Shown here in pieces: positions 18,016-56,859 of a stretch of DNA of 64,000 nt (positions are counted from its first letter, which is position 1; every line of letters begins with the position of its first letter). The position numbers were made by a program, and so were the translations under genes. This DNA is from Acidimicrobiia bacterium (GTDB taxonomy: Bacteria > Actinomycetota > Acidimicrobiia > Spongiisociales > Spongiisociaceae), in contig OZ241390.1 in NCBI GenBank assembly GCA_965200835.1, forward strand, positions 2,563,286 to 2,627,285, in the 5' to 3' direction. The notes beneath the pieces are model-generated. The model was not told where the DNA came from and made no database searches. It saw only the letters and a list, made by a program, of their open reading frames with translations.

Positions 18016-18849
18016 ATGGTTGCTTCCACCACTCGACCGGTCGCCTTCCTGTCCGACTTCGGGTGGGAGGACGAGTTCGTGGGGGTCGTCCACGGGGTGA
18101 TCGCCACACTGGCGCCGGACTGCCGGGTGATCGACCTCAACCACCGGATCCCGAGGGGGGATGTCCGCTCGGGTGCTCTCGGGCTGCTGCGAGCCATCCA
18201 GTACCTGCCGCCCGGTGTGGTCCTAGCGGTGGTGGACCCGGGGGTGGGAACCGAGCGCCGCCCCGTAGTGGTGGAAACGGGTTGGGGATACATGGTGGGT
18301 CCCGACAACGGCCTCCTGTCGCCGGCCGCCGCCCTGGTCGGAGGAGTGACGCGCGCCTTCGCCATCGAGAACCCCGAGGTGATCCTGCCGTCCCCAGGGC
18401 GGACCTTCGAGGGGCGGGACCGGTTCGCTCCAGCCGCCGCGGTGCTGGCGGCGGGGGAGGCGGAGCCCCACGAGCTGGGTCCCCGGATCGATCCGCACAC
18501 CCTCGAGCCCCTCCTGCTTCCCCTGCCGGAGGTATCGGATGGTCAGGTGGCCGGCCAAGCCTGGTGGGTCGATACCTACGGGAACGTGCAGACCAACATC
18601 TCGCCCGAGAACCTGGCGGAGGCCGGAGTTTCCCCGCATGACCGGGTCACGGTGCGGGTCGGTCTGATGAACTATCAGGTTCCCTGGGTGGGAACCTATG
18701 GAGAGGTGGGGGAGGGGCGCCCGCTCCTGCATGTCGACTCGGCCGGACTGATGGCCCTGGCGGTAAGGGGAGGCCGGGCCGATGAGCACTTCACCCTGTG
18801 CGCTGGAACATCGGTGATCATCGCCGCTACTGGCCCGGCTACAGGCTGA
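18016..18849 (+). CDS. SAM hydroxide adenosyltransferase / SAM hydrolase family protein (DUF62)
   Basis: VAFLSDFG, VVDPGVGT and YGNVQTNI motifs. Confidence 0.8.
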   Translation: MVASTTRPVAFLSDFGWEDEFVGVVHGVIATLAPDCRVIDLNHRIPRGDVRSGALGLLRAIQYLPPGVVLAVVDPGVGTERRPVVVETGWGYMVGPDNGLLSPAAALVGGVTRAFAIENPEVILPSPGRTFEGRDRFAPAAAVLAAGEAEPHELGPRIDPHTLEPLLLPLPEVSDGQVAGQAWWVDTYGNVQTNISPENLAEAGVSPHDRVTVRVGLMNYQVPWVGTYGEVGEGRPLLHVDSAGLMALAVRGGRADEHFTLCAGTSVIIAATGPATG

Positions 18850-18948
18850 GCAGCTGGATCACGAACACGATCCCGGCCAGCCCGATCACTCCGAGCAGGA
18901 CGAGCAGGGTGATGGCGGTTCCGGGCCTCACACCTACTGGCCTACCTG

Positions 18949-19962
18949 CTACCCCGCCAGTGCTTCGGTGGTGTCCTCCTCGGGCACTGCATCACCGCCT
19001 TCTTCCTCGGGTTCGGCGAAGCCGCAGTCGAAGACTGCCTCCTCGACATCCTGGCCTCCGAATACCACCCGCTCGTAGAAGACGACCGCGGCGATCTCGT
19101 CAGGGGTCAACGTCTCCTGGAAGGAAGGCATCTGGCCTCCGGACCCGACCGCAATGGCGGTGTCCCCATAGGTATCCCGGCCGGCATCCTGGAAGCCGGT
19201 AGTGCCGAGTGAGACCCACTCGATGTGGTCCGTACACATTGAGAACGTGGTCAGGACCCCTCCGGCCAGGGCCGGTCCCGAGCCTCCCTCCCCGCCCGCA
19301 CCATGACATGAAGCACAGCTGGATGGCTCGGTGTAGACCACACTTCCAACGCCCACCAGGGCGCGCACATCCACCCCGCCAGCCCCGCCCCCGGCGGAGA
19401 ACTCGGAGCCGTCGCAGTTCTCCACCCCTCCGGTGAGCCGATCCACCGCCAGCTGGCCGCCGGTCCCGCAGCTGGGGCCGTTGGCGAACGTGATCAGATA
19501 GGTCAGGCCGACCAGCGGCACGGCGAAGAACAGCCCCATGAGCCAGCGCGGGATAGCAGCCGCGATCCGCTCGGTCAGCCCGGCGGTGGGGCCGGTGATC
19601 ACCGCTTCGAAGTCGAGGGCATCGGCGATCGTGACCCGCTCGGGTGGTGGCGGCATGGCGGTGACTTCACTGGTCTCCGGCGCCGCGCCGGCATCGTCCA
19701 CGTCCGGAAGGGTCGCCAGGGCGGCCTCGGGAGGGGCTTCAGTGGCCACGATTGGGGACGCCGGCGGAGTAGGCGCAGGGGTGGCGGTCTCCTGGCGATC
19801 CGCAGGAGCTGATCCGGTGGGTGCGACCCCGCCCCCGGCCCAGGCGGCCAGCACGTCCTCCACCGACAGACCATCGGCGGCCGCTCGAGCCTCGGCGGAC
19901 CGCTCCACCAGATGTTCGGGGCTTCCCATCCGGGCAGCTGCGGCGGCTAGCAGCTCGCTCAT
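18949..19962 (-). CDS. Membrane-anchored monohaem cytochrome c (CcoP-like position)
   Basis: ATG at 19962 with GAGGAG upstream. N-terminal soluble module, Ala/Pro linker and one TM helix. CASCH haem site and GGQMPSF. Confidence 0.75.
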   Translation of the reverse strand: MSELLAAAAARMGSPEHLVERSAEARAAADGLSVEDVLAAWAGGGVAPTGSAPADRQETATPAPTPPASPIVATEAPPEAALATLPDVDDAGAAPETSEVTAMPPPPERVTIADALDFEAVITGPTAGLTERIAAAIPRWLMGLFFAVPLVGLTYLITFANGPSCGTGGQLAVDRLTGGVENCDGSEFSAGGGAGGVDVRALVGVGSVVYTEPSSCASCHGAGGEGGSGPALAGGVLTTFSMCTDHIEWVSLGTTGFQDAGRDTYGDTAIAVGSGGQMPSFQETLTPDEIAAVVFYERVVFGGQDVEEAVFDCGFAEPEEEGGDAVPEEDTTEALAG

Positions 19963-19999
19963 CGGATCTCCTCGTAGCTCGTGGCCATTCCCGGATACC

Positions 20000-20818
20000 T
20001 CATAGTGACTCGGCCAGATAGTTAGCCAGCGCGTCGAGGTCCTGCTGCGACAGGTGAGCATAGGACGGATGGATACCGTCGGGGAAGATCTGTTCCGGGT
20101 TGATGAGGAATGCAACGAACTCGCCGTCGGTCACCGGATCGTCGGGGTCTCCATACGATGGGCGAGCGCCGATGTGGGCCAGGTCCGGGCCGATCCGCTG
20201 CACCCCGAAAGTTCCTGCGCCCAGGGCGTCCGAGAACGTCTCGGTGACCGGCCCCAGGCCGACATCGGCCAGCACCGGCCGCACCAGCTGGGTGTGGCAG
20301 TAGCCGCAGCCCTGGTTCAGATAGACGGCCCGGCCCGCCTCGCCCAGCTCGCTCAGCGAGGCGTCCGGAACGAGATGGCGGTAGTCGCCTCCGGTGTTGA
20401 ACGGTCCGATCAGCGCGATGATCAGGCCAAGCAGGAAGAAACCGGCCATCATCAGCCAGGTCCGTAACGGATGGAACCTGCGGCCCTCCAGGATGGGAGT
20501 TGCCTTGCTACGGGACGGGGTCACCACCACCGGTGGGCTGGCTGCAGGAGGAAGGGTGGCCACGGCCGTGGCGGCCGCGAGGGCCGGGGCGGTCACCCCG
20601 GGAACGGCCGGAGCCGGTCCCGGGTCCGCAACCTGGGAGGCCGGCTTCTCGACGGCCGCGGGAGCAGCTGCGGCGGGAGGGGGTGCCCCGCCGGTCCAAG
20701 CGCTCAGGATCGCTTCGTAGCTGGTGCCGTCGGCCTCCGCGCGGGCCTCAGCCGATCGCTCCACCAGATGCTCGGGCGCGCCGAGAGCGGCCGCGGCTGC
20801 GGCCAGAAGATCACTCAT
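20000..20818 (-). CDS. CcoO (FixO)-like monohaem cytochrome c subunit
   Basis: GRAVYLNQGCGYCHTQLVRP, QRIGPDLAHIGAR and NPEQIFPDGIHPSY are colinear with the CcoO signature. It carries an extra N-terminal module. Confidence 0.7.
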   Translation of the reverse strand: MSDLLAAAAAALGAPEHLVERSAEARAEADGTSYEAILSAWTGGAPPPAAAAPAAVEKPASQVADPGPAPAVPGVTAPALAAATAVATLPPAASPPVVVTPSRSKATPILEGRRFHPLRTWLMMAGFFLLGLIIALIGPFNTGGDYRHLVPDASLSELGEAGRAVYLNQGCGYCHTQLVRPVLADVGLGPVTETFSDALGAGTFGVQRIGPDLAHIGARPSYGDPDDPVTDGEFVAFLINPEQIFPDGIHPSYAHLSQQDLDALANYLAESL

Positions 20819-22268
20819 CCCCGGACTCCGATCGGTCGGTGCTGGACACCGGCAACAATATCTCCACCGCCCTGGCAGGGCCGGCCACGTAAGTTCCCAC
20901 CGCGGTCCAGGCCAGCAGGGCTATTCCGGTGGCAGCTACCACCGCGCCGAGTGCGGCGATCGTGAAAAGCACATCCACTCCGGCGAGGGTCTCGGAGAAG
21001 CCGGTCCCGGCATTGGCGCGGGCACCCGAGGCGCGAGCCCAGTTCCAGGTGAGGCCGGTCACCAGGCCGGTGATCGACAGAGCACCAGCCGCCGTGCCTC
21101 CGCCCCACAGGGTGAGACGAAGGCCCCGCTGGGCGGTGTCAGTTGCGGCGAGCTCGCGTCCCGTGGTGCGCGGGAAAGCGTAGAACACCAGACCGAGCCC
21201 GAGGATCGGGATCGCCACCAGCATCGAGCCGGTAGCCAGCCCGTCGTACCAGGTGGTGAGACCGACCACTGCCGCCACCGACCGGAAGCCGGAGGCGCCC
21301 ATCAGGAGGGTCACGAGGGCATAGGCGACCGTGCCGGCCAGGATCATCCTGGTTATCAGGCTCTCGCCGGTGGTCTCCCACTCACCCGATACGGTAAGCC
21401 AGATATTGGTCAGCACTGTCAGGGCCGATAGGGCCAGTCCCATGGAGGCCATGACCACCACGCTCTCCGTCCAGTCGGGTGCCGGGCCTCCCAGAAAGCG
21501 AGCCGGAGCAGCGAGCAGGCCAGCCCCGGCCAGGGTCCAGAACCCTGCCCTGGCCATCGGTCCGGAGAAGAGAGGCCGGCCACTCTCCTTCACCACCACG
21601 TAATAGGCGCCTGCGAGCGCGGCGGCCGGGAAGGCCAGCACCAGCATCCCGCCGGATACCAGGCTGGTCTGCAGGAACCCTCCGATGTTGGGCAGGCCAG
21701 GAAGGCTGCCGGTGATGTAGAGCGCCGGATACCACCAGACCCCCCCGATGACGTACAGGAGGGAGACATAGGTCCCCGCTTCGGTGCGCTCCCTGATCAT
21801 GGCGGTCACCAGCAAGGCCGGTACCACGGACGCAGCGGCCAACGGCCAGTCCAGCAGGGGGGGGAACTCGGCCAGTTCCGGTCCCGCCGGACCGCGGAAC
21901 AAAATAACGAGCACTCCGAGCAACACCAGCGCGCCGTATCCCGCCCCGGACAGCAGGGCGATGTGCTGGTGCCTGAGGGGAGCGCCCACCAGCCGGGGAG
22001 TCAGGTAGTAAGCGGCAGCCTGGGTAAGCGTTCCTCCGAATCCGTAAACCAGCAGGGACACGGCCGCCGGTCGCAGGCGCCCATAGGACAGGAAGGTGGT
22101 GTCGGCGAAAAGGGTGGGTACCGCGAGCTTGATCAGCATCACGGAGAACAGCACCGCGCCGATCATCAGGAGGAGGCAGGCGATCATCATGAGGCCGGCC
22201 ACCGCCGTCTCGCGGTGGTCTGCACCTATCCCGTTGCCGGATGTGCCGGCGGTCCGGTCCTCAGCCAA
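20811..22268 (-). CDS. CcoN-like haem-copper-oxidase subunit I homologue lacking the canonical His ligands
   Basis: About 12 TM helices. SYGRLRPAAVSLLVYGFGG, VWWYPALY, YYVVVKESGRPLF and PDWTESV are colinear with cbb3 CcoN. The protein has only 3 His in total. Its stop overlaps the CcoO-like start. Confidence 0.65.
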   Translation of the reverse strand: MAEDRTAGTSGNGIGADHRETAVAGLMMIACLLLMIGAVLFSVMLIKLAVPTLFADTTFLSYGRLRPAAVSLLVYGFGGTLTQAAAYYLTPRLVGAPLRHQHIALLSGAGYGALVLLGVLVILFRGPAGPELAEFPPLLDWPLAAASVVPALLVTAMIRERTEAGTYVSLLYVIGGVWWYPALYITGSLPGLPNIGGFLQTSLVSGGMLVLAFPAAALAGAYYVVVKESGRPLFSGPMARAGFWTLAGAGLLAAPARFLGGPAPDWTESVVVMASMGLALSALTVLTNIWLTVSGEWETTGESLITRMILAGTVAYALVTLLMGASGFRSVAAVVGLTTWYDGLATGSMLVAIPILGLGLVFYAFPRTTGRELAATDTAQRGLRLTLWGGGTAAGALSITGLVTGLTWNWARASGARANAGTGFSETLAGVDVLFTIAALGAVVAATGIALLAWTAVGTYVAGPARAVEILLPVSSTDRSESGDE

Positions 22269-22524
22269 GCCGTTCGCTCCTCGTGTCTGCGCCGATTCCG
22301 TAAGGGTAGATTAACGGCCCGGCGGTAGTCCTCATTCCGGTTGGCGGCTCTGCCACCCCGCGTGAGGACTGGTCGACCCTCTCGTTACCCCAGGCTCCTG
22401 GCATCCGGCGGTATTCTGGCAGCGTCCCGCCGGAGGGATGGCGGGTTTAGCGAGTCACTGCCTTTATGCTTCAATGCGGCTTACCCGGCGGCCCGATGGC
22501 GGCGACACGGAGGCGAACTACCGG

Positions 22525-23298
22525 ATGGTGCAACGCAAGCTTCGGCAGATGAGCGGTCAGCAGCGCGCGCTGGCTGGCTGGGGTCTGTTCCTCCTAGGTC
22601 TGGGAGCCCTGGTGGTGGGGGTGTGGTTCAACCACTACTCGAACTTTCCCTCGGTGGAGACGGTCACCATCGCCACGGACGAGGCGGCCACCATGCAGGC
22701 CGGGGATCGGATCAGGTACGACCGGGAGCTCCGGACGGTGGCCCGGACTCCTTCAGTCGATCCCACCCTTCCCCAGGTGCCGGTCGATCTGGCGGTGGAC
22801 GTCGACGTATTCGGGTGGGTGCCCCGGGATTGTCTGGTGCGGGGCGGCGACTGGTGCCTGCCGTGGTCCACCCTGGGTCATCTGGTAGCACTAGGAGGTA
22901 GCCAGCTGATGCTGCTGGGGGTGGCCATCGCGGTCATTCTCGGCAGGAGGATGACCTGGTCACTGGCGGCGCTGGCTGCGTTCCTGGCGATGCTCGAGCT
23001 GGTGCTGCTGCTCGGTAACGTGGCTTCGGAGTGGCTCAACCTCGCTCAGGGACCGCTCAATTGGACCGAGCAGAACGACGCCTTCGGGATCTGGCCCCCC
23101 CTGGTGCTGGGTAACCAGGTCGGGATCAGCTGGGGGGCCATAAAGGACTTCGTGTCGATCAACTACAACATGGGCGCCCTGACCTTTATCATCCTGTTCG
23201 CTCGCTGGATCCAGAGTTTCAGCGGGTCGATGCCGGCCGAGAGGCCGTCCGAGCTGAAGTCCCCCTACGGGCGACCGCTGGTCAAAGGAGTCAAGTAG
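22525..23298 (+). CDS. Hypothetical membrane protein, first gene of the cytochrome bc operon
   Basis: ATG at 22525 with GGAGG upstream. Several TM helices. Its stop abuts the ferredoxin ATG. Confidence 0.5.
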   Translation: MVQRKLRQMSGQQRALAGWGLFLLGLGALVVGVWFNHYSNFPSVETVTIATDEAATMQAGDRIRYDRELRTVARTPSVDPTLPQVPVDLAVDVDVFGWVPRDCLVRGGDWCLPWSTLGHLVALGGSQLMLLGVAIAVILGRRMTWSLAALAAFLAMLELVLLLGNVASEWLNLAQGPLNWTEQNDAFGIWPPLVLGNQVGISWGAIKDFVSINYNMGALTFIILFARWIQSFSGSMPAERPSELKSPYGRPLVKGVK

Positions 23299-23754
23299 AT
23301 GCCCAAGTCGGAGGTGTGGTTCGAAACCCCGCCGTTCCGGGACGACTACCAGCTGGCGATGGTCGAGACCAGTTACGTCCAGAGCCAGGTCCGTCCCAAG
23401 CAGTTCCTCCACATCAATCAGGCCGAGTGCATCCTGTGCGAGGGTTGCGTGGACATCTGCCCGTGGAAGTGCATCCACTACCTGTCCCTGGACGCCATAG
23501 ACGAGGCCCACGGAGTCGACCACCCGGAGGACAGCCCGGACAACGTGGGGTTCTTCGTGGTCGACGAATACGAATGCACCCGCTGCGCGCTCTGTATCGA
23601 TCGCTGCCCCACCAACGTCATTTCCCTCGGCAAGTTCACGGGATCGGTCAGCGACACGGCCATGAACGCCGGGCTGGTGGATCAGGCACCTTGGGACTTG
23701 GACACCGGGGATCGGGATTTCAAGAACGGCTACACCTACGGCATGCGCTGGTAA
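23299..23754 (+). CDS. 2x[4Fe-4S] ferredoxin-domain protein
   Basis: [12 protein letters not shown] and [12 protein letters not shown] cluster motifs. Confidence 0.8.
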
Positions 23755-23767
23755 CGGAGGCTTTTCG

Positions 23768-24541
23768 ATGGCGTTGGGGAATGGATTGAAGCTCAAGGAA
23801 CGGGTGGCCGAGGCGGCCGACGCCTTCCGGGGTAGTGCCTTCTGGGAGTCGATGTTCCGTCCCGGCTCTCCCTTCAAGCGAGGCTACAGCGATAGTCCCA
23901 GGAACCGTTCCTACGTGATCATGAACAACGTTCTCTATCACCTGCACCCGGTGAAGGTCAAGCGGCACGCGGTGCGCCTGTCCTACACCCTGTGCCTGGG
24001 CGGTCTCAGTTTCTTCCTGTTCATCCTGCTTACCATCACCGGCATCTTCCTGATGTTCTATTACCGGCCCACCGCCCCGGCCGCCTACATAGACGTCGAG
24101 GCCCTGTCCACTTCGGTCGCCTTCGGGTCCCTGGTCCGAAACCTCCATCGCTGGGGCGCCCACTTGATGGTGTTGACCGTCTTCCTGCATATGTCCCGGG
24201 TCTTCTATCACGGCGCCTACAAGCCGCCCCGCGAGTTCAACTGGGTGGTCGGGGTAGTCCTGTTACTGCTGACCCTCCTGTTGTCCTTCACCGGTTACCT
24301 GCTGCCCTGGGATCAGCTGGCGCTGTGGGCGGTGACCGTCGGTACCAATATGGCCGGATTCACCCCAGTGTTCGGCAACCAGGTGAAGTTCGCCCTATTG
24401 GGGGGGATCGAGGTGACCGGCAATACCCTGCTGCGTTTCTATGTCCTGCACGTGCTGTTCCTGCCGTTCGTGATCGTGATCTTCATGGCCGTTCACTTCT
24501 GGAGGGTGCGTAAGGACGGCGGAATATCGGGCCCGCTCTAG
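23768..24541 (+). CDS. Cytochrome b6-like subunit (N-terminal half of cytochrome b)
   Basis: Four His in two helix pairs ([20 protein letters not shown] and [23 protein letters not shown]). PWDQLALWA motif. Confidence 0.85.
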
Positions 24542-24557
24542 GAACGGTCGAGGATCG

Positions 24558-25460
24558 ATGGTCGAGATACCGGAACATTTGCTGAGGCGCTCGGCGGAGG
24601 CGAAGGCACGCGCCCTCGGGGTGCCTGTGGAGCAGGTGCTGGCCGAGATGCAGGGTGAGGTGGCCTCGTCCCGGCCCCCGGCGGCTCCCCCGCCGCGCCC
24701 GGTGGTCACCCCTCCGGTGCCGGTGGCCGAGGAACCACCCCCGGAGGCCCGCCCCGAGCCGGCCGCCCCAGCCCCCGAGGCCCCGGTTCCCGTGACCGCC
24801 GAGCTACCAGCGGCCGCTACCGAAGCCTCGGTTGCGGCGGCCACCACCGTGGCTCCGCCCGTGGCCGACAACGGCGCCGGGGCAGCGACCTCGGTGTCAC
24901 CCCGCCCGGTAGCCCCTCCCCAGGAGATTCCGGAGGGAGTGAGGCCGCAGCGCTTGCTCACGGTGGTGAAGGCGAAGGCCATCCAGCAGGTGAAGGCCAC
25001 CCCCACCGACAAGGTGAATACCTGGCCGCATCTGATGATCGCCGAGTTCACCGCCCTGATGGTGGTCACCGCCGTCCTGATCATCCTGTCGGTCATCCTC
25101 CAGGCACCCCTTCTGGAGCTGGCCAACTTCAACGCCACGCCCAACCCGTCGAAGGCGCCCTGGTACTTCCTCGGTCTCCAGGAGCTGCTGTCCTATTACG
25201 ATCCGCAGATAGCCGGGGTCATCATCCCCACCATCACCGGACTGCTCGGGTTCATGGCAATTCCCTACGTGGATCGCAACCCCTCCACCAAGCCATCCGA
25301 TCGGAAGTTCGCCATAATGCTGTTCACGCTGTTCCTGGCCGGCTCGGCGACCCTGACCCTGCTGGGAACCCTGTTCAGAGGCCCGGGCTTCAACTTCACC
25401 TACCCCTGGGCCGACGGGATCTGGTTCGACGACTTGAAGGACTGGGTGCATTTCGAATGA
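24558..25460 (+). CDS. Cytochrome bc subunit IV-like protein (C-terminal half of cytochrome b) with N-terminal extension
   Basis: [15 protein letters not shown] corresponds to the PEWY region. Three TM helices. A ~130-aa N-terminal soluble, Ala/Pro-rich extension. Confidence 0.8.
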
Positions 25461-26371
25461 CCTACCTGCAGTTGCTCATCGTGGGGATCTCGGTCGTGGT
25501 GGTGTTCGGCGTGCTGGGTGCCTTCATGATCGCCTACCGCCGGAGCGGCACGCCCGGGCCGGCGCGCCCCTCCCGTTCATGGAGAAAGTCGGTCTCGCGG
25601 GAGACCCGCAAGGCGGACCGATCGGAGGCCCCGTCGAGGACGGTCGTCAAGGAGGCGCCGGCTCCCGAGCCGTTTCCTACCGAGGAGGATGCCACTCGGG
25701 TTCCGGAGGTCCTACCTGTTCCGGCAGAGCCTGCTCCGGTGCAGGTGGCCGAGGTGGTCCGGTTCGAGGAACTCTCGCCCCAGGAGGCGGGTGTCAACCG
25801 CCGTATGTTCCTGACCAGGGCGCTCGGCATCACCTTCGGTGGTTTCCTGGGGCTGAACGGTATCGCCTACCTGGGATTCCTTTGGCCTCGCCTATCGGGC
25901 GGTTTCGGGTCCGACATCGATGTGGGGGCGGTGGCCGACATCCGGGCGGAGGTGGTGCTGAACGACGGCTCCATCCTCCCCAAGTTCGTGCCCGAGGCAC
26001 GGGCCTACATAGTGCCCTTCGCCGAATCCGACCTGTCCCGCTCACAGTTCGAGGGCCTGCCGGTGGTGGCCGGAGGACTTTCCGCCATCTTCCAGCGGTG
26101 CGTGCATCTCGGATGCCGGGTTCCCTGGTGCGAGACCTCCCAGGGGTTCGAGTGTCCCTGCCATGGTTCCAAGTACAACTACGCGGGGGAGTACGAGGCC
26201 GGACCTGCTCCCCGCAACCTGGATCGGTTCGAAGTAGCCGACGAGAACGGGCGTATGATCGTGAGGACTGGGGAGATCTTCCAGACCCCCCGGGCCATCG
26301 CCAAGACCGTTCCCTACCCGCAGGGTCCCTCCTGCATCGCCCTGACCACTACCGACGAAGCTGAGGCGTAA
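25457..26371 (+). CDS. Rieske [2Fe-2S] subunit
   Basis: CVHLGC and CPCHGS boxes. N-terminal TM helix. Confidence 0.85.
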
Positions 26372-26374
26372 CCG

Positions 26375-27844
26375 GTGGCCACCCTGGTAATCACCCTTGT
26401 CGCGCTGGGGGCGATCGGCTGGTTCGCCTATCTGGTGGGCTCCGGTTCACGGCGAGATCGCAAGGATCCGGTACCGGCCAACCTGTCGGTCTCCCAGACC
26501 GACGACGAGATGGAGACCAAGCGTCTCGACCGGGCCCTGGTGAGCGCGGTGCTGAGCGCGGCCTTCCTCACCCTGGCCATGCCGATCTACTACCTCACCG
26601 AGCTGGATCGCCAGGAGGGGTTTGTGGAGGAGTTCAGCCACGCTTCGGTGGAGCGGGGTCACGAGGTATGGGACGAGTTCGGCTGCGGTGACTGTCACGG
26701 GACGATCGGTGGCGGCGGGGTGGCCGCCTTCCTGGAGGAGCGTTCCCAGGTGGATGTGCCGGGCTGGGCCGCTCCCACACTGGATGACATCTTCTACCGC
26801 TATGACCGAGACGAGGTCCGGTTCTGGATCGCCTATGGCCGGGCCAACACCCCCATGCCGCCTTGGGGCCTGGAGGGAGGAGGGCCTCTGAACAGCCAGC
26901 AGATCGATGATCTGCTCAACTACATCCACTCCTTCGAGGTCGACCAGACCACCGCGCTGCTGAGGATCGAGGGTCTGGTGAACGGAGCGGTCAATCGGAG
27001 GGCCGGGGCAGCCGAAACAGTGGCAGCCCAGGTTTCCGAACAGCAGGAGCTGATCGAGACCATCCGCACCTCGGGAACGTCCTCCGAGGAGGTGGGCGAA
27101 ATTGCCGAGCGGGCCCGTGACCTGCTGGACGGGGCCGGATTGGGGATCGACACCGACGGTGATGGACTGTCCGACGTGGCCGAGACCGGGCTGACCGCCG
27201 TGCTCCAGCAAGCTTTTCTCACCGGCTATGTGGTTACCGAGCTGTCCTTCGATCCCCGTAACGCCGAAACTCTCATCGGCATCAGCGACGCCCGTTCCGC
27301 GGCCCGGGCGGTGGGTGACCTGGAGTCGACCGCCACCTCGCTCAGCATCACTTTCCAGAACCAGGAGGGCCTGATGGACCAGGCCCGGTTCGGGCTCCAG
27401 TTCCTGGAGGACGCCGCTCGCAACGAACGGTGGGTAGTGGACACCGACCGGGTGGCCCAGGCTACGTTCGAGGGTGATATCGACTCAGCTACTAGAGCGG
27501 TGAGCCTGTACGACGCCTACTGCGCTCGTTGCCACACCGCTGGATACTCGGCCGGAGCGGCCTTCCAGCAGGTACAGGCGTCGGGTGGTCTCGGTCCATC
27601 CTTGCGCGATGGCCGCTCTCTCACCCAGTTCCTCACCCATGAAGACATGTACAGCTTCGTGTCCACCGGCTCGGTTTCGGGAGTGGGTTATGGGGTCAAC
27701 GGAGTGGGCTCGGGCCGCATGCCGGGCTTCGGTATGGTGCTCTCCGCCGAAGATCTGGACCTGATAATCCGGTACCTGCGCGGTCCCACCCTCGATGGCC
27801 AGGACTACGTGTCCGGAAGCGAACCCGAGCAGGGGGAGGGATAG
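26375..27844 (+). CDS. Dihaem cytochrome c (QcrC-like)
   Basis: GTG start. CGDCH and CARCH haem sites. GRMPGF. N-terminal TM helix. Confidence 0.8.
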   Translation: MATLVITLVALGAIGWFAYLVGSGSRRDRKDPVPANLSVSQTDDEMETKRLDRALVSAVLSAAFLTLAMPIYYLTELDRQEGFVEEFSHASVERGHEVWDEFGCGDCHGTIGGGGVAAFLEERSQVDVPGWAAPTLDDIFYRYDRDEVRFWIAYGRANTPMPPWGLEGGGPLNSQQIDDLLNYIHSFEVDQTTALLRIEGLVNGAVNRRAGAAETVAAQVSEQQELIETIRTSGTSSEEVGEIAERARDLLDGAGLGIDTDGDGLSDVAETGLTAVLQQAFLTGYVVTELSFDPRNAETLIGISDARSAARAVGDLESTATSLSITFQNQEGLMDQARFGLQFLEDAARNERWVVDTDRVAQATFEGDIDSATRAVSLYDAYCARCHTAGYSAGAAFQQVQASGGLGPSLRDGRSLTQFLTHEDMYSFVSTGSVSGVGYGVNGVGSGRMPGFGMVLSAEDLDLIIRYLRGPTLDGQDYVSGSEPEQGEG

Positions 27845-28197
27845 TGCGAGAGCTGTTCAGAGCCCTTCTTTCCCAGAACCTGCTGTTCACCGGGATCGTG
27901 CTCACCCTGGCGGCCGTGCTGGTGTTCTTCGGCAGCGTCTACCTTCTGCAGTACACCAATCTGGGCAAGCGGCTGGCCATCCTGGTGTCGGGGGCCGGTA
28001 TCTTCGGCTGGACCACCATCAACTCGCTTCTCTTCGTGCTCTATGCCCCGCGGGGACCCCGGCCGGTCGACTTCGAAGGGTTGAACGCGTTCGAGATCAG
28101 GATCATCCCGGGCGCCTTCACGGCCGCATCCGCCATCCTCTTCGCCATGTTCCTGGTAGCGCTGCATCGTTACGAACGGGACCAGGAACGGGAGTGA
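27844..28197 (+). CDS. Small three-helix membrane protein, last gene of the bc operon
   Basis: Its GTG shares 1 nt with the upstream TAG. Three hydrophobic segments. Confidence 0.5.
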   Translation: MRELFRALLSQNLLFTGIVLTLAAVLVFFGSVYLLQYTNLGKRLAILVSGAGIFGWTTINSLLFVLYAPRGPRPVDFEGLNAFEIRIIPGAFTAASAILFAMFLVALHRYERDQERE

Positions 28198-28243: not shown

Positions 28244-29281
28244 TTGAGTGGGATGATGTGGCCGTTGCAGCCTCCGGTGAAGCCCATGAAGGCCCGAGTG
28301 AGGGCCAACCCGCCGCGAGGTGAAGGGTGGCTGTACGAGCCCAAGTGGGACGGGTTCCGGATGATCGCTTACGGCGGTGACGAGGTCCGGCTCGACTCCC
28401 GCAACGGCAAGACCTTGCTGCGCTACTTTCCCGAGCTTCATCCGGCACTCGCTCAGCTCCCGCCCGGAACCATCGTCGACGGCGAAGTGCTGATAGTCGT
28501 GGACGACGTGACCAACTTCGATCTGCTGCAGTTGCGTATCCATCCGGCCCGCTCCCGGATCGAGCACCTGGCCCAGGAGATCCCGGCTCGGCTGGTGGTT
28601 TTCGACCTGCTCGCCGAGCGAGGGGAGAACCTGTCCGACGTTCCCTACGCCACTCGCCGGGTGCGCCTAGAGCACCTGTTCGAGGGGCTGGGGGAGGGCT
28701 GGCACCTGACACCGGTTACCTCGGACTACCAGATGGCCGCCCGCTGGTTCCACGAGTACGAGCCGGCCGGCTGCGATGGGATCATCTGCAAGCGGGCGGA
28801 GGGACTGTACCTCCAGGACAAGCGGGAGTGGATCAAGTGGAAGCATCGCCGGTCGGTGGACTGCGTGATCGGCGGCTACCGGGTCCACAAGGACGGTGAC
28901 AAGGTGGGCTCTATCCTGCTCGGTCTGTACAACGCCGAGGGCAATCTTCACTTCATAGGGCACTGCTCGGGGTTCTCGAATCGGGACCGGGTGACCATCC
29001 TCGAGATGCTCGAGGAGATACGCACCGACGAGAGCTTCGGCGGCGACCAGACGCGGGCGCCGGGAGCTCAGAGTCGCTGGTCGACCGCCCGCTCCGCTCA
29101 GTGGACCCCGGTGGAACCCTGCATCGTGGTGGAGGTGAGTTACGACCAGCTGCAGGGGGGGGAACGGTTCCGGCACGCCACCCGGTTCGAGCGGTGGCGT
29201 ACCGACAAGCCGCCCACCGAGTGCACCATGGACCAGCTGGTACGGCCCACGGGGGCTGGCTTCTCCGAGGTAGTGGCTTGA
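28244..29281 (+). CDS. ATP-dependent DNA ligase (LigC-type, adenylation + OB domains)
   Basis: Motif I EPKWDGFR, motif IV-like DGIICK, and KWKH. Confidence 0.85.
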   Translation: MSGMMWPLQPPVKPMKARVRANPPRGEGWLYEPKWDGFRMIAYGGDEVRLDSRNGKTLLRYFPELHPALAQLPPGTIVDGEVLIVVDDVTNFDLLQLRIHPARSRIEHLAQEIPARLVVFDLLAERGENLSDVPYATRRVRLEHLFEGLGEGWHLTPVTSDYQMAARWFHEYEPAGCDGIICKRAEGLYLQDKREWIKWKHRRSVDCVIGGYRVHKDGDKVGSILLGLYNAEGNLHFIGHCSGFSNRDRVTILEMLEEIRTDESFGGDQTRAPGAQSRWSTARSAQWTPVEPCIVVEVSYDQLQGGERFRHATRFERWRTDKPPTECTMDQLVRPTGAGFSEVVA

Positions 29282-30303
29282 TCCCAAGGGCCGGTGAGGT
29301 CCTTTCCTTGCCGATCTCGGCCAGACATCATGAGACCGCCGATGCGGTGACACTCACCTTCGATGACCCTGAGGGGACGGTCGGAGGAGAGGCGGGACAG
29401 TACGTGATCGTGAGGGTGACGGTCGATGGGGAGGAGCATCTGAGGGTCTTCTCGCTCAGCTCCACACCCGAGTTGGGCCAACCCCCGTCCATCACCGTGA
29501 AGCGTCTCCCCGGGGGAGTGGTCTCCACCTATCTGCTGGAACGAGCCAGGGTGGGAGACGTCATAGGTGTGGAGCCAGCCGCAGGAACCTTCGGAGTGGG
29601 GATCGACCCCGCCAACCGCCGCACCTACTACGCGCTGGCGGCCGGGAGCGGGATCGTCCCGATCATGAGCATCCTGCGAGGCGCGGTGACCCTCGAGTGC
29701 CGCTCAACTGTCCACCTGGCCTACGGCAATCGGCGACCCCAGGATGTGATCTTCCATGATGCGCTGGAGCGATTGGAGCGCAGGTTCCCGGACCGCTTGG
29801 GAGTGTCACACGTGATGAGCGGGATGGGTCAGCGGATCGACTACCGCTACCTGGACGCCTTCCTTATCAGCCATCCGCCCCGAACGGCCGACGTCTGGTA
29901 CCTGCTGTGCGGGCCGCCTGGCATGAACTGGGATCTCTCGGCCCGACTACGGACGCTGGGCGTTCCCGAGGACCGGTTGCGGGTCGAGCACTACCTGCCT
30001 CCCCAGCAGGAGAACGCCCCAGTTCCTTACGACCCGGCCCGAATCCTGCTGGAGGGCCATCACCGGTCGGCCGAGCTGCGAGCTGGAGAAGTGCTGCTGG
30101 CTGCCATGGATCGGATAGGAGCACCGGTTCCCTACGCCTGCCGCTCAGGAGTGTGCGGAACCTGCCGGGTGGAGCTGGTGGAGGGTCAGGTAGACCCGGG
30201 CATACCCTTCGCCCTCACTGCTGCTGACCGGCAAGCAGGCGCCATCCTCACATGTGTAGCAAGGCCCACCAGCCCCGAAGTAATACTCCGCTATCCGTCC
30301 TGA
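29278..30303 (+). CDS. Ferredoxin-NAD(P) reductase-type flavoprotein with C-terminal plant-type 2Fe-2S domain
   Basis: RVFSLSS FAD motif, AAGSGIVPIMS NAD motif, and CRSGVCGTCRV...ILTC cluster. The TTG start overlaps the ligase stop (TTGA). The track ORF start at 29101 lies inside the ligase gene. Confidence 0.7.
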   Translation: MIPRAGEVLSLPISARHHETADAVTLTFDDPEGTVGGEAGQYVIVRVTVDGEEHLRVFSLSSTPELGQPPSITVKRLPGGVVSTYLLERARVGDVIGVEPAAGTFGVGIDPANRRTYYALAAGSGIVPIMSILRGAVTLECRSTVHLAYGNRRPQDVIFHDALERLERRFPDRLGVSHVMSGMGQRIDYRYLDAFLISHPPRTADVWYLLCGPPGMNWDLSARLRTLGVPEDRLRVEHYLPPQQENAPVPYDPARILLEGHHRSAELRAGEVLLAAMDRIGAPVPYACRSGVCGTCRVELVEGQVDPGIPFALTAADRQAGAILTCVARPTSPEVILRYPS

Positions 30304-30647
30304 TTCACAAGGCTTCCTGCCACGCACTTTGCGGGCCTAAGTGTCGGCGCTGAAGAGCCGGGTAACGTGAGATAGGTGATGAGCGAAGAGTGCTTCGTTC
30401 GCCTTCCGGCACAGCGCGCAAACGTGGATTCGGGCACGAGGCTTTCGAAAAGGGCAAAGGTGTAACTACCCACCCGATTTCCGAGTAGCTAGCAGTGGCG
30501 CTTCAGGAAAGTCAGGCGTGGGTGATCTGGCTGGCGGGCTCTCTCGGGAGGGGTTCGGTGGAGTGGTGAGACTTTAGTGATCGGTGCTATCTTGCAGTGC
30601 CGATTTATCATTGACTGTTGTCGGTGTCCCGACGAGAAGGCCTGAGA

Positions 30648-31514
30648 GTGGAGTACCTTCGACCTCGTACCTGGCAGGAAGCCATCGCCCTCAAGACGGA
30701 GTGCCCGTCGGCTGTTCCTATCAATGGAGGCACGGACCTCATGGTCGACATCAACTTCGCCCGGCGGCGACCGGACGCCCTGCTCGATCTGTCCCACCTG
30801 GGGGAGCTGAGGCGGTGGTCCAGGCAGAACGGCGCGGTCGAGCTCGGTGCCGGGGTGACCTACACCGACGTCGTGGAGCATCTGTCGGACGAACTGCCTG
30901 GGCTGGCGATCGCCTCCCGGACGGTCGGATCGCCCCAGATCCGCAACCGGGGCACCATCGCCGGCAACCTGGCTACCGCGTCGCCGGCCGGTGACGCCCA
31001 CCCTCCGTTACTTGCTACGGGCTGCGACATCCGGCTGGAGTCGATGCGGGGTAGCCGGGAAGTTCCGATCGGCCGGTTCTTCACCGGACCGAAGCGCACC
31101 GTGCTCGAGCCCGACGAGCTGATCCGCTCAGTCCGGGTGCCGGTAGCCAGAGGTCCCCAGCAGTTCTCGAAGGTGGGCACTCGGAATGCCATGGTGATTG
31201 CAGTGGTGTCGTTCGCGATTGCCCTGGATGTCGACGCGCGGAGGGTGGGTACGGGCATCGGGTCAGCCGCGCCCACCCCGATCGAGGCAGACGAGGCGTC
31301 TAGTCACTTGGAAACGGAGCTGGCAGCCGGCGAGTACTGGCGCCACCGGCGGGAACTCGATCAGAGGCTGGTCGAGGGCTTTGCCGAGCGGGTGGCCGCA
31401 GTGGCGAGGCCGATCGACGATGTCCGGGGAGCGGCTTCCTACCGGCGCCATGCGCTGGGAGTGATAGCGCGGCGATCCCTGAGGTGGGCGTGGGAAGCGC
31501 TACCGCCCGAGTGA
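30648..31514 (+). CDS. Molybdenum hydroxylase FAD-binding (medium) subunit, CoxM/XdhB-like
   Basis: VEYLRPRTWQEAIAL and INGGTDLMV motifs. GTG at 30648 (track start is 30618). Confidence 0.8.
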   Translation: MEYLRPRTWQEAIALKTECPSAVPINGGTDLMVDINFARRRPDALLDLSHLGELRRWSRQNGAVELGAGVTYTDVVEHLSDELPGLAIASRTVGSPQIRNRGTIAGNLATASPAGDAHPPLLATGCDIRLESMRGSREVPIGRFFTGPKRTVLEPDELIRSVRVPVARGPQQFSKVGTRNAMVIAVVSFAIALDVDARRVGTGIGSAAPTPIEADEASSHLETELAAGEYWRHRRELDQRLVEGFAERVAAVARPIDDVRGAASYRRHALGVIARRSLRWAWEALPPE

Positions 31515-31687
31515 CACGAGCTCTCATCGACTCTGAGCAGAAATCCATCTGCCGGTAGAACAACGAGAGCAACGTAATGTGGACGTGCTGCGGCGGGCTT
31601 CTTATCCCTCCTTCGTGTCAGCCTTAGCAGAGTGGACGTGGTGGGCTGTAGATCACACTGCATCGGCGTCGCCTCCTTTGTGGGACG

Positions 31688-32167
31688 ATGGTGAACATGT
31701 TGGTTGAGCTAGTAGTAAATGGTCGCCCGTGCAGCGTGGAGAACGTGTGGGGCGGCGAGAGCCTCCTCTATCTCCTCCGGGAACGGCTCGGGCTTCGGGG
31801 ATCCAAGAACGCCTGCGAGCAGGGCGAATGCGGTTCGTGTTCCGTCTACCTGGACGGGGAGCTGGTATGCGCCTGCCTGGTGTCGGCCGGCCAGGCCCTG
31901 GGGACCGAGGTGATCACCGTAGAGGGTCTGGCCGAAGGTGACCTGCTGCACCCCATCCAGCAGGCCTACATCGTGGAAGGCGCGGTGCAGTGCGGATTCT
32001 GCACGCCGGGCCTCATCGTCGCTACCCACCAGCTCCTCGCGGCCAATCCGAACCCATCGGACGACCAGATTCGGGAAGCCCTGGCAGGCAACCTGTGCCG
32101 CTGCACCGGATATGAGAAGATCATCGGAGCGGTCCGATTGGCGTCGATGGAGCTGGCCATGTCATGA
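31688..32167 (+). CDS. Molybdenum hydroxylase 2x[2Fe-2S] (small) subunit, CoxS-like
   Basis: CEQGECGSCSV, CGFCTPG and CRCTGY motifs. Confidence 0.9.
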   Translation: MVNMLVELVVNGRPCSVENVWGGESLLYLLRERLGLRGSKNACEQGECGSCSVYLDGELVCACLVSAGQALGTEVITVEGLAEGDLLHPIQQAYIVEGAVQCGFCTPGLIVATHQLLAANPNPSDDQIREALAGNLCRCTGYEKIIGAVRLASMELAMS

Positions 32168-33159
32168 CGGCTGGCACCAATCATCACACGCCCATTCCTC
32201 GGGTCACTGTGATAACCGGGTTCCTCGGCGCCGGAAAGACCACCTTGGTCAACCATCTGCTCACCACCGACCATGGCAGGCGGATCGCGGTGATCGTCAA
32301 CGAGGCGGGGGAGATCGGGATCGACGGTGACCTGATCGTGTCTTCCGACGAGGAGATCATCGAGCTGGCGAACGGATGCGTGTGCTGCACGATCTCGGTC
32401 CGCAGCGACCTCACCAAGGTGATCAAGAAGCTTCTGGCGCGGCCTGTACCGCCCAACTACCTACTGATCGAGGCGAGCGGGCTGGCCGATCCAGCGCCGC
32501 TCACCCAGTCGCTGTTCGTCGACGAGCTGGTCGACTACCTGCGGCTGGACGGAGTGGTCACCATGATCGATGCCAGCAACGCGCAGAGCCATCTCGAGGG
32601 AACAGGCCGGTACGAATCCGGCAACCGGGTGGTGGACCAGATCGTCACAGCCGACCGGATCGTCCTCAACAAGGTCGACCTGGTCACCGAGGAAACCTGT
32701 GCACGCATCGAGCAGCACGTCGAGGAACTCAACAATACGGCTCCGGTGATCAGGACTTGCTATGGGCGGGTCGATCCGGACGCTCTGTTGGGAATCGGCG
32801 CGTTCGATCCTGCCGCGCCGAGCACTGAACCGGACTGGCTTGTTGCCTGGAGTGGAGGTGAGAACGATCCGGGGTTGGTGCCGATCAGTATCGAAGCACA
32901 TGGCGAGTTGGACGAGGACAGGCTCACAGCCTGGCTGGAGGACCTGACCGCGGCTCGGGCGCCGGATCTCTATCGACTCAAGGGGATAATGGCAGTGGAT
33001 GGAAGTCCCGACCAGATCGTCTTGCAGGGAGTGCATGGCCTGTTCGAGACATATCGGGGAGGCCGGTGGTCGGGCCCCCGTACCAGCCGGTTCGTGCTGA
33101 TCGGTCGGGACTTCGACGAAGAGGTACTGCGATCAGGTCTGGAGGGATGTCGAAAGTGA
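32164..33159 (+). CDS. COG0523 / CobW-family G3E GTPase (metallochaperone-like)
   Basis: GFLGAGKTT P-loop, the characteristic NGCVCCT motif, and a C-terminal CobW_C-like region. Confidence 0.85.
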   Translation: MTAGTNHHTPIPRVTVITGFLGAGKTTLVNHLLTTDHGRRIAVIVNEAGEIGIDGDLIVSSDEEIIELANGCVCCTISVRSDLTKVIKKLLARPVPPNYLLIEASGLADPAPLTQSLFVDELVDYLRLDGVVTMIDASNAQSHLEGTGRYESGNRVVDQIVTADRIVLNKVDLVTEETCARIEQHVEELNNTAPVIRTCYGRVDPDALLGIGAFDPAAPSTEPDWLVAWSGGENDPGLVPISIEAHGELDEDRLTAWLEDLTAARAPDLYRLKGIMAVDGSPDQIVLQGVHGLFETYRGGRWSGPRTSRFVLIGRDFDEEVLRSGLEGCRK

Positions 33160-53966: not shown

Positions 53967-55258
53967 GGGCGGATGTTGCCTATGGAATCGACTATGGAAC
54001 TACCAACAGTTCTATCTCCTTAGCATATCGCGATCATGTGGAAGTACTATCGACCGGCGGTTATCGGACTTCGTCGGCAGCCTTCCCCTCATTGGTCTAC
54101 CTTCACAGGAACGGGCTGAGGCTAGCTGGTCGCCAGGCGGCAGAGAGTTTCTCTATCACCGGCAATCAACAGACCCGATGTAACAGCTGTGAGCTAGTAG
54201 TTGGCTGTGAGCAGTTCAGCCGGGGAGGAGGCTGTCTCGACTCCCGGTTGATGGGTGAGATCAAGAGCACGCTCACAGATAGAGAGTTCCAGCATACCCA
54301 CTCATGGGGGACCGACTTTCAACTGGAGGATCTGGTTGCAGTCATCATGTCCTACCTCAAACGGCTCGCCGATCGCCGGACCGGCCAGCATGTAACCCGG
54401 GCGGTCATCGGTTACCCGATTGCCTTCTTCGGGGCAACCGGCGAAGGGTCCCGAGCGAAGCAGTTGGTGGCCGAGGAGCGGGTCGAGGAGGCAGCCCGGA
54501 GGTCAGGATTCACAGAAGTAGAACTCTATCCGGAGCCTGCTGCCGTAGTACTGGATGAGGTGCTGGACGATGCGTATGTGGTGGCGGTTGACTTCGGTGG
54601 TGGAACATTCGATGTGGCTGTCACCTCGGTGTTCGGAGGAGAGGGGGAAGTATTGAGCCTGGCGGGAGCGGCTGTAGGGGGCGCCATTCTCGACCGGTTG
54701 ATCTTCGAGGAGAAAGTAGCGGAGTGCCTCGGATTGAATGAGCCCTTCGTTCCGGCTTGGTTCCGCAGTGGTTTGGCGAGTCTGGAGAGTTTCAAGTATA
54801 TAATGAACCACCGATATTCGTTTAGTATTCTCGACCTTAGTAAATGACTGCCAGCTCAGAGTGCTTTGCTACAGTCGATAATCACGGGTGGCCAAGCCTA
54901 TCGATTCTACAAAGCGATCGAGGACGCCAAGATCAGGTTGTCGACGGCTGAGCGAACCTCGATCGAGTTCCATCCCCCTCAGGGTGACCTATCGATAGAT
55001 CTGAGTCGAGCTGAGCTGGATCGGATGGTGGCGCCTCAGCTCGAGGTGGTCGAGCAGCAGATAGTGAAGGCGCTGGATGAGGCCGGTGTCATGCCTGAAG
55101 AGGTCACTGTCGTCTTGCGTACCGGTGGGTCGTCGCAACTCAGTGCTTTCGGCACGATGCTGGATCGGATGTTCGGGGTCGAAAAGGTACGGAAGCGGCC
55201 CCCTTTCACAACCGTCGCCTATGGTTTAGGGGTAGTGGCACAGAAGACCTGGTTATGA
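53963..55258 (+). CDS. Hsp70/actin-fold ATPase with nucleotide-binding domain only, interrupted by one in-frame TGA (54845-54847)
   Basis: AYGIDYGTTNS, VAVDFGGGTFDV and VLRTGGSSQL motifs. Cys-rich insert RCNSCELVVGCEQFSRGGGC. Track ORFs 53963..54847 and 54866..55258 share one frame. The start overlaps the SNF2 stop (TTGA). Confidence 0.75.
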
Positions 55259-56082: not shown

Positions 56083-56132
56083 GGACCACCGGGATCGATC
56101 ACCTCTCAGGTCCGATCTCCCAAGGGCACTAG

Positions 56133-56189
56133 CACTCCGGGGTTGAGGACTCCTTTGGGGGTCGAGATGGGCCTTGGCTCTGGCGAGGA
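56133..56189. repeat. Copy A of a ~57-bp direct repeat (degenerate duplicate of the 3' end of the FAD-linked oxidase gene)
   Basis: CACTCCGGGGTTGAGGACTCCTTTGGGGGTCGAGATGGGCCTTGGCTCTGGCGAGGA differs from 59950-60005 by 2 substitutions and 1 extra G. Confidence 0.85.
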
Positions 56190-56192
56190 GTG

Positions 56193-56850: not shown

Positions 56851-56859
56851 TCCCAAAGG

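Follow-up and report, generated by a model that had tools for sequence, protein, structure and literature searches.

A 64-kb stretch of DNA from a member of the Acidimicrobiia (hereafter, the window; GC content about 0.65), whose closest public relatives are metagenome-assembled genomes of sponge-associated Acidimicrobiia labelled Candidatus Spongiisociaceae, encodes a homologue of CcoN, subunit I of the cbb3-type (C-family) oxidases, in which all six histidine ligands of the haems and copper are replaced. The respective gene, denoted here ccoN-like, is the first in a set of three co-oriented minus-strand genes (18949-22268), being followed by a ccoO-like gene and a gene for a third protein, a cytochrome c; the set is divergent from a seven-gene bc operon that starts at 22438. 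The comparisons described below place the window gene in a large, non-catalytic branch of the C-family that has not been described before, and show that, in two independent lineages, the catalytic center was lost from a C-family gene set located beside a quinol:cytochrome c oxidoreductase, yet the set was kept.

A full-length homologue of cbb3 subunit I

The 485-amino-acid product of the ccoN-like gene matches the Pfam family COX1 (PF00115) with an E-value of 3e-22 and a score of 79.5 bits (gathering score 34.8) over profile positions 6-436 of 436, that is, from end to end. The best match among the NCBIfam models is the ccoN equivalog TIGR00780, but the score of 110.1 bits falls far below the cut-off of 583.15. 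The only solved structures to which the protein is related by sequence are cbb3 CcoN chains: a profile built from 33 family members aligns with Pseudomonas stutzeri CcoN (3MK7_A) over residues 12-466 with an E-value of 8.6e-59. An AlphaFold2 model constructed from the family alignment, with a predicted local distance difference test (pLDDT) score of 86 and a predicted template modelling (pTM) score of 0.87, contains twelve long helices. In a Foldseek search with this model, 3MK7_A was the top hit (template modelling scores, TM-scores, of 0.86/0.89; root-mean-square deviation of 2.9 Å), the CcoN chains of bc1-cbb3 supercomplexes were within the top 7, and TM-scores for cbb3 CcoN were 0.84-0.90 overall, followed by nitric oxide reductases (NOR), with a weaker match (E-value 3e-9), and then by the A- and B-family oxidases.

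The model and the Foldseek comparison thus predict the 12-transmembrane-helix fold of subunit I, and the protein, with its 12 helices, is homologous to cbb3 (C-family) CcoN over the full length. A preliminary description of this locus, made from the sequence alone, had proposed that the protein is colinear with CcoN and that an AlphaFold model would show whether the fold is kept; the COX1 match, the profile alignment with 3MK7_A and the structural similarity bear this out, and all twelve helices are present in the model. Membership in an unrelated family with 12 transmembrane helices is ruled out by the Pfam, profile-to-structure and Foldseek comparisons.

Loss of the cofactor ligands

Residues were mapped by profile alignment to P. 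stutzeri CcoN and by adding the P. stutzeri sequence to an alignment of 187 full-length sequences that includes the family and the best representatives. The six invariant histidines, two of which ligate the low-spin haem, one the high-spin haem and three CuB or FeB, are H60, H207, H257, H258, H345 and H347 in P. stutzeri, and the corresponding residues of the window protein are A69, G206, A256, R257, L344 and T346, respectively. Thus, the earlier claim that every ligand position differs holds for all six histidines, with a correction to one of the underlying motif pairings: the segment VWWYPALY, previously equated with the WWYGHNAVGF motif of CcoN, is located in helix 5 (residues 177-184; approximately positions 21717-21740), about 25 residues upstream of the true counterpart, SLVSGGMLVL (approximately residues 201-210), with no histidine in either case. 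Within the close family, the VWWYPALY segment itself shows strong conservation that the oxidase template does not account for.

The total of three histidines given in the preliminary description is correct; these residues (18, 100 and 102) are not conserved. Almost all relatives contain 1 to 7 histidines, none at the ligand columns, and certain relatives have a single histidine and no cysteine in the entire protein, so that ligands at shifted positions are ruled out. The signature of cNOR and qNOR, six histidines plus a glutamate ligand of FeB, is missing as well, given that there is no histidine at the ligand columns. The cross-linked tyrosine (Tyr251), present in all 18 canonical six-histidine sequences, is replaced by glycine (G250) in the window protein, and the column is occupied by W, G or A in the ligand-less sequences. 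Altogether, seven columns with His or Tyr in 100% of the 18 canonical sequences show a most common residue at 16-73% in both ligand-less groups compared, namely, about 70 non-redundant Acidimicrobiia-type sequences and 21 sequences of the type encoded next to Alternative Complex III (ACIII; see below). The cofactor-shell residues R57, W203 and H337 are also less conserved in the ligand-less sequences. From these alignments, the CcoN-like protein is predicted to hold none of haem b, haem b3 and CuB any longer, and hence to reduce neither O2 nor NO.

It is quite improbable that the protein is still a redox enzyme that relies on non-histidine ligation or on a new active site. Some ligand changes are tolerated in the haem-copper oxidoreductase superfamily (PMC11214002), and the pockets still offer space, the replacement residues being small. 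However, in the ligand-less alignment, the six ligand positions and their surroundings show no conserved Met, Lys, Tyr, Cys, Asp or Glu residue, which counts against other modes of ligation and against a new active site; the six columns are among the most variable ones, and the family members with a single histidine and no cysteine also speak against this possibility.

Nearly all residues with at least 75% conservation in the approximately 70 Acidimicrobiia-type sequences are likewise conserved in canonical CcoN; these include the Y/F-G-R..P loop, R92, E134, YY222/223, FW243/244, P262/P264/W266, R329 and T338. For reference, we take E122 to be the Ca2+ site of P. stutzeri CcoN. The single K-analogue proton channel of the P. 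stutzeri enzyme presumably consists of Y223, S240, Y317 and Y251, with Glu323 hydrogen-bonded to His345. The window protein keeps the tyrosines Y222 and Y316 of this channel and has lost the remaining components, with S240 replaced by A239, Y251 by G250 and E323 by L322; across the ligand-less sequences, Y223 is kept in 67-83%, and Y317 is partly retained, as Tyr in 20% of the Acidimicrobiia-type and 52% of the ACIII-type sequences.

These patterns bear on a possible function as a redox-independent ion or proton conduit, that is, a channel or gated leak that would modulate the proton-motive force near the bc complex. The predicted fold is intact, the two tyrosines are retained to the extent given above, and R257 and D/E342 occur frequently among close family members, all of which would be compatible with a conduit. 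Nevertheless, we consider this function unlikely, given the replacement of S240, Y251 and E323 by Ala, Gly and Leu, the presence of Arg at the former H258 position in only 33-39% of the sequences, and the fact that every polar or charged membrane residue conserved across the ligand-less clade is also conserved in canonical CcoN. The proton-channel role that had been suggested in the preliminary description is accordingly weakened, because the equivalents of S240, Y251 and E323 are lost with no conserved charged replacement. A conserved new ligand set, or a buried R257-D342 ion pair as a general feature of the clade, was considered and rejected on account of the same low frequency of Arg; the R257/D342 pair occurs often within the close family, and specific conservation across the clade is seen for no other polar residue.

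Purifying selection and conserved translation signals

A word-indexed search yielded at least 75 clusters of ccoN-like sequences (all counts of ligand-less clusters given here are lower bounds), nearly all full length, with identity to the window protein ranging from 77% down to 27%. Contigs of 1.1-3.8 Mb carry several of these relatives; of the eight related genome loci, four are on chromosome-scale records of 3.0-5.1 Mb. The dN/dS ratio (omega) of the ccoN-like gene is 0.18-0.30 in comparisons with seven orthologous loci, for which dS is near saturation, and 0.14 and 0.24 for two close pairs (dS of 0.23-0.27). The respective values for the neighboring genes are 0.08-0.32 for the Rieske subunit, 0.09-0.26 for the dihaem cytochrome c and 0.02-0.07 for cytochrome b6. 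Hence the constraint on the ccoN-like gene resembles that on the Rieske and dihaem cytochrome c genes, and cytochrome b6 is far more constrained; an omega of 1.7 for the first membrane protein of the bc operon compared with locus L003 was disregarded as an alignment or frame artefact. In an alignment with the related loci L001-L007, the ribosome-binding site GAGGAG (22282-22277), located 8 nt before the TTG start codon (22268-22266), is conserved together with the start codon, and so is an upstream TTAATCTAC element (22314-22306). A scan for consensus promoters and terminators in the 18700-22600 region detected nothing above chance.

The substitution patterns indicate that the ccoN-like gene is kept under purifying selection. 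That it is a decaying pseudogene or an assembly artefact is extremely improbable: the gene does evolve faster (66-75% identity in relatives) than the cytochrome b6 gene (96-98%), but there are more than 70 full-length clusters, some on long contigs or chromosome-scale records, omega is in the range of 0.14 to 0.30, the ribosome-binding site and start codon are conserved and the AlphaFold2 model is confident. We therefore reject decay, and the relaxed selection that had been named as evidence to the contrary in the preliminary description is not seen. The loss of the catalytic residues, purifying selection and a conserved gene context, with synteny maintained down to 27% identity, together correspond to a pseudoenzyme.

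Partner cytochromes and a shared N-terminal motif

The stop codon of the ccoN-like gene and the start codon of the ccoO-like gene share an 8-nt overlap, ATGAGTGA (20818-20811), through which the two genes are predicted to be co-translated; with this overlap and full-length open reading frames, the operon appears intact and coupled, as previously proposed. The ccoO-like product scores 47.3 bits against Pfam FixO (cut-off 29.6) and matches the CcoO chains in the Protein Data Bank (PDB) with an E-value of 2e-10, so that the gene next to ccoN-like is indeed of the CcoO type. The protein consists of an N-terminal cytoplasmic motif, a Pro/Ala linker, one transmembrane helix and a haem-binding site, CGYCH (171-175). 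As noted in the preliminary description, the CxxCH motif is kept and the axial-methionine motif MPSY of CcoO reads HPSY, so that the His/Met ligation typical of CcoO is missing and His/His ligation is predicted in its place. The window shares the HPSY variant with L001-L005 and L007, whereas the distant ligand-less loci L011 and L013 have MPSY; the His-for-Met change is thus limited to the sponge-associated clade.

For the third gene, the mechanically called open reading frame spans 18949-20115 (minus strand), but the likely start is the ATG at 19962, which gives a protein of 337 amino acids, because the orthologs begin at an MSELL or MSDLL methionine. The protein has one transmembrane anchor, a single CASCH site and a QMPSF methionine motif, in agreement with its earlier identification as a membrane-anchored monohaem cytochrome c. 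It is not a dihaem CcoP, the only similarity to the ccoP model being a weak C-terminal match of 25 bits vs a cut-off of 180. Both partner cytochromes retain their haem c sites and membrane anchors.

The N-terminal motif mentioned above is about 45 residues long, PEHL[VL]xRSAEA[RK]A..G.S.E..L..W.GG, and precedes, with a Pro/Ala-rich linker, the membrane anchor of three proteins, namely, the ccoO-like product, the third cytochrome and, from the bc operon, the subunit-IV-like protein; it occurs nowhere else in the 64 kb. The motif is found on proteins of both operons in 12 related loci (the relatives named as carriers are L001-L012, L019 and L020; the subunit-IV copy in L003, L005 and L007 was missed by the pattern), and a cytochrome of L020 carries two tandem copies. 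The pattern search detected the motif in neither gene set of L013 and in none of the ACIII-type loci. Pfam has no family for this motif, and a profile search with it retrieved only short fragments from Acidimicrobiia and Actinomarina, revealing no other types of carrier proteins. No other sequence feature linking the proteins encoded by the two operons was found.

The adjacent bc operon and conserved synteny

The divergent operon encodes an unusual complex of the b6c type, with a Fer4 subunit on the cytoplasmic side, a membrane protein that belongs to no known family, and a split subunit IV. The true start of the membrane protein gene, the first of the operon, is probably downstream of the annotated one, because its orthologs align from residue 18-25 (19-25 in L001-L007). 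The cytochrome b6 contains a cysteine in the sequence TLCLGG, which we take to be the position of the haem ci/cn cysteine. In the dihaem cytochrome c, a long insert between the haem domains includes an Asp-rich DTDGDGLSD stretch, and the L009 ortholog shows a faint Pfam match to thrombospondin type 3 (calcium-binding) repeats.

All Acidimicrobiia-type relatives examined, which represent seven lineages at 27-77% identity and come from eight genome loci and the loci of five further relatives, adjoin the same, divergently oriented Rieske/cytochrome b cluster. The cluster is complete in L001-L007 and next to the distant homologues P0065 and P0067 (37% and 32% identical to the window protein, respectively), and in L008 it runs off the end of the contig. 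At the P0073 locus (29% identity), the cluster is present, with ccm genes between it and the ccoN-like gene. P0071 (30%) and P0075 (27%), in both of which the N and O subunits are fused, come from short contigs on which only the first gene or genes of the cluster are visible.

Distribution and a second, independent loss

A HMMER search of 1.84 billion representative sequences detected at least 650 proteins at E<=1e-3. Among the 187 aligned full-length sequences, 147 have no histidine at the ligand columns, 23 have one to three and 17 have all six. The ligand-less groups include forms fused to FixO (approximately 640-690 amino acids) and a separate family of about 490 amino acids. This second family comprises at least 1285 clusters at E<=1e-10, from Verrucomicrobiota, Methylomirabilota and metagenomic bacteria; of its 117 closest full-length clusters listed, 90 lack all ligand histidines and 10 have six, and forms with one to three also occur. 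Its ligand-less members P0132 and P0235 are 48-51% identical to the canonical P0324 vs 27-30% to the window protein. Both P0235 and its six-histidine relative P0324 (48% identity) are encoded directly 3' of the seven genes of Alternative Complex III, ActA-G, and in each case the next genes encode FixO and a cytochrome c, both with intact CxxCH motifs. The CcoN homologues found directly downstream of ACIII, outside the window, are at positions 8001-11022 of L015 and 8001-10966 of L017.

In a simple neighbor-joining tree constructed without the ligand columns, the ACIII-type sequences form a clade with a bootstrap of 99 that holds both six-histidine and zero-histidine members, and the Acidimicrobiia-type sequences fall outside it. 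Because sequences with six and with zero histidines are found on both sides of the split that defines the ACIII clade, the tree indicates that the ligands were lost at least twice.

Predicted role of the ligand-less subunit

On balance, and with slightly better than even confidence, we favor the interpretation of the CcoN-like protein as a cofactor-free scaffold that would anchor cytochromes c resembling CcoO and CcoP to a quinol:cytochrome c oxidoreductase. The three products of the minus-strand genes would assemble as a CcoNOP-like membrane complex in which the CcoN-like protein is only a scaffold. By analogy with the solved bc1-cbb3 supercomplexes, this module may dock onto the divergently encoded b6c complex, in which case electrons from the dihaem cytochrome c would pass via the c-type haems to an acceptor encoded elsewhere, such as an aa3 or caa3 oxidase. 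The N-terminal motif on subunit IV, the ccoO-like product and the third cytochrome might tether the two halves. The genomic context favors one of the three roles floated in the preliminary description, the electron-transfer scaffold docked to the bc complex.

We consider rather unlikely the alternative that the three proteins form a stand-alone complex of anchored cytochromes c that is co-regulated with the bc complex without docking to it, with the ccoO-like product requiring the CcoN-like protein for insertion or stability. Such an arrangement would fit the translational coupling of the two genes and the conservation of the CcoN-type loops, and gene adjacency alone is no proof of contact. 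However, the adjacency is invariant over the entire 27-77% range of identity and recurs with ACIII, and subunit IV of the bc operon carries the N-terminal motif as well.

Several observations weigh against the scaffold interpretation. The docking is proposed from gene order and the shared motif, and the protein, the complex and the cofactor content are all predictions from the genes. A 12-helix protein is a costly anchor for a cytochrome that already has a transmembrane helix of its own. The His-for-Met change in the ccoO-like product would probably lower the potential of the haem, which would be a poorer fit to a simple high-potential exit wire. The residues that replace the ligands are mostly small (Ala or Gly), and the pockets are not obviously filled. 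Finally, no terminal oxidase, the candidate acceptor, is encoded within the 64-kb window. In favor of the scaffold interpretation, a complete caa3 operon is located 8 kb from the ccoO-like gene at the P0073 locus (L013), so that the module can be accompanied by a true oxidase; a survey of relatives for a separate terminal oxidase had been recommended in the preliminary description.

More tentatively, and with less than even confidence, the cofactor-free cbb3 subunits could be viewed as a large, unrecognized class of pseudoenzymes, with at least two origins, whose members have turned into obligatory structural components of complex-III-type enzymes, namely, the Fer4-containing b6c complex in Acidimicrobiia and ACIII in Verrucomicrobiota, Methylomirabilota and others, holding CcoO/CcoP-type cytochromes as the electron exit. 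If this is the case, a sizeable fraction of the 'cbb3 oxidase' calls in the genomes and metagenomes of these groups is no sign of high-affinity O2 respiration.

Other features of the window

The coordinates of the two operons and of the elements associated with them are given in Table 1. Directly after the bc operon, the window encodes an ATP-dependent DNA ligase (28244-29281, plus strand), followed by a ferredoxin-reductase-type protein with FAD, NAD and [2Fe-2S] sites (29101-30303, plus strand); the mechanically called open reading frame of the latter overlaps that of the ligase by 180 nt, so that its real start is probably downstream. Further on (30618-35489, plus strand), there is a gene set of the xanthine dehydrogenase/CO dehydrogenase family, with FAD, [2Fe-2S] and molybdopterin subunits, in which a CobW-type GTPase gene is inserted between the genes for the small and large subunits. 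A low-GC island at 51006-59426 (GC content of 0.53-0.59 vs about 0.65) contains a SNF2-family helicase split into two open reading frames (51006-51542 and 51657-53966), an Hsp70-like ATPase split in the same manner (53963-54847 and 54866-55258), and two minus-strand genes for RCC1-repeat proteins, one with an SLH domain; the island possibly represents acquired DNA with frameshifted genes.

Table 1. Genes and sequence elements of the ccoN-like gene set and the divergent bc operon (positions in the window)
Feature	Position	Strand	Description	Basis
CcoP-like membrane-anchored monohaem cytochrome c	18949..19962	-	337 amino acids	Pfam Cytochrome_CBB3/Cytochrom_C
N-terminal motif, third cytochrome	19828-19962	-
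ccoO-like	20000..20818	-	272 amino acids; CcoO/FixO-like monohaem cytochrome c	Pfam FixO; PDB CcoO chains
N-terminal motif, ccoO-like product	20684-20818	-
ccoN-like	20811..22268	-	485 amino acids; homologue of cbb3 subunit I with 12 transmembrane helices	COX1; profile; AlphaFold2; Foldseek
Divergent intergenic region between ccoN-like and the bc operon	22269..22437	none		Alignment with L001-L007
Family-less membrane protein, first gene of the bc operon	22438..23298	+	Orthologs of 203-286 amino acids
Soluble 2x[4Fe-4S] ferredoxin-like subunit	23299..23754	+	No transmembrane helix; 87-92% identity in L001-L008	Pfam Fer4
Cytochrome b6-type N-terminal half (ExtP-like)	23768..24541	+		Pfam Cytochrome_B, 163 bits; NF040969, 308 bits, above cut-off; 93-98% identity in relatives
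Cytochrome b C-terminal/subunit-IV-like protein	24558..25460	+	Carries the N-terminal motif	Pfam Cytochrom_B_C
N-terminal motif, subunit IV	24558-24680	+
Rieske [2Fe-2S] subunit	25457..26371	+		Pfam Rieske; PetC-like NCBIfam matches
Membrane-anchored dihaem cytochrome c	26375..27844	+	CGDCH and CARCH	Motifs; transmembrane helix
Protein with two transmembrane helices, last gene of the bc operon	27844..28197	+	117 amino acids; 92-98% identity in relatives, omega 0.01-0.10

Implications for annotation and for the superfamily

The six histidines count as the invariant feature that defines the haem-copper oxidoreductase superfamily, and a diverse clade that lacks all six while remaining under selection implies that the haem-copper oxidase scaffold has a second, non-catalytic use. 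The two losses, each beside a quinol:cytochrome c oxidoreductase, translate into a testable prediction on bacterial supercomplexes of the III-IV type and on the non-catalytic contribution of CcoN to them. No description of a ligand-less CcoN was found in the open full-text literature, in line with the impression of novelty in the preliminary description; this coverage does not extend to subscription literature, where an earlier mention is possible.

The ccoN gene is a standard marker of micro-aerobic respiration. In the source annotations (PGAP and IMG), most of these proteins are named 'cbb3-type cytochrome c oxidase subunit I' and a few 'hypothetical protein', with no other name seen. Given the missing ligands and tyrosine and the low equivalog score, the ccoN-like gene should not be filed as a cbb3 oxidase. 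High-affinity oxygen respiration may be over-called in metabolic reconstructions of marine, sponge-associated and soil lineages, considering that, in the ACIII-type family alone, 90 of the 117 closest clusters listed lack the six ligands.

Comparison with known systems

The gene set most closely resembles the cbb3 oxidase CcoNOP (P. stutzeri, 3MK7/5DJQ), with which it shares the subunit I fold and a colinear sequence, the overlap of the N gene with the O gene that follows it, a CcoO-like partner with CxxCH, and then an anchored cytochrome c. Unlike CcoNOP, it lacks the six histidines, Tyr251 and Glu323 and scores below the ccoN equivalog cut-off; the axial methionine of the ccoO-like product is replaced by histidine, the third subunit is monohaem rather than dihaem, and both cytochromes bear long N-terminal cytoplasmic extensions.

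The bc1-cbb3 supercomplexes of Rhodobacter capsulatus (6XKW) and Pseudomonas aeruginosa (8SMR) likewise combine a C-family subunit I and CcoO/CcoP-type cytochromes with a Rieske protein and cytochrome b. In these solved supercomplexes, CcoN is catalytically active, and the genes are not known to be linked in the manner observed here. In the window, by contrast, the oxidase half is predicted to be cofactor-less, the bc half is of the b6 type with an extra Fer4 subunit, and the association of the two is proposed from the genes.

The core proteins of the mitochondrial bc1 complex are peptidase-derived, inactive, structural subunits. By analogy, the CcoN-like protein could be another case of a catalytic ancestor that is retained as a structural subunit under purifying selection, although the fold and the lineage are unrelated and the structural role of the CcoN-like protein is only predicted.

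Among the ACIII clusters that include haem-copper oxidase genes, the ligand-less P0235 is found directly 3' of ActA-G, in the same position as P0324. The P0235 lineage differs from that of the window protein in that the two are only 27-30% identical and lost the ligands independently, and the window encodes a bc-type complex instead of ACIII.

Within the superfamily, the gNOR, NOD, eNOR and nNOR families have one ligand changed or the tyrosine lost while keeping both haems and the metal (Murali et al. 2024, PMC11214002), and the variants described include low-spin haems with His/Met or His/Lys ligation and, in gNOR, Asp in place of one CuB histidine (PMC11214002). Apart from one substitution, the six histidines were completely conserved in this 2024 survey of the superfamily (PMC11214002). 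Like these families, the CcoN-like protein belongs to the haem-copper superfamily and is predicted to have abandoned O2 reduction through changes of the ligands; unlike in any of them, all six histidines are gone, with nothing conserved in their place.

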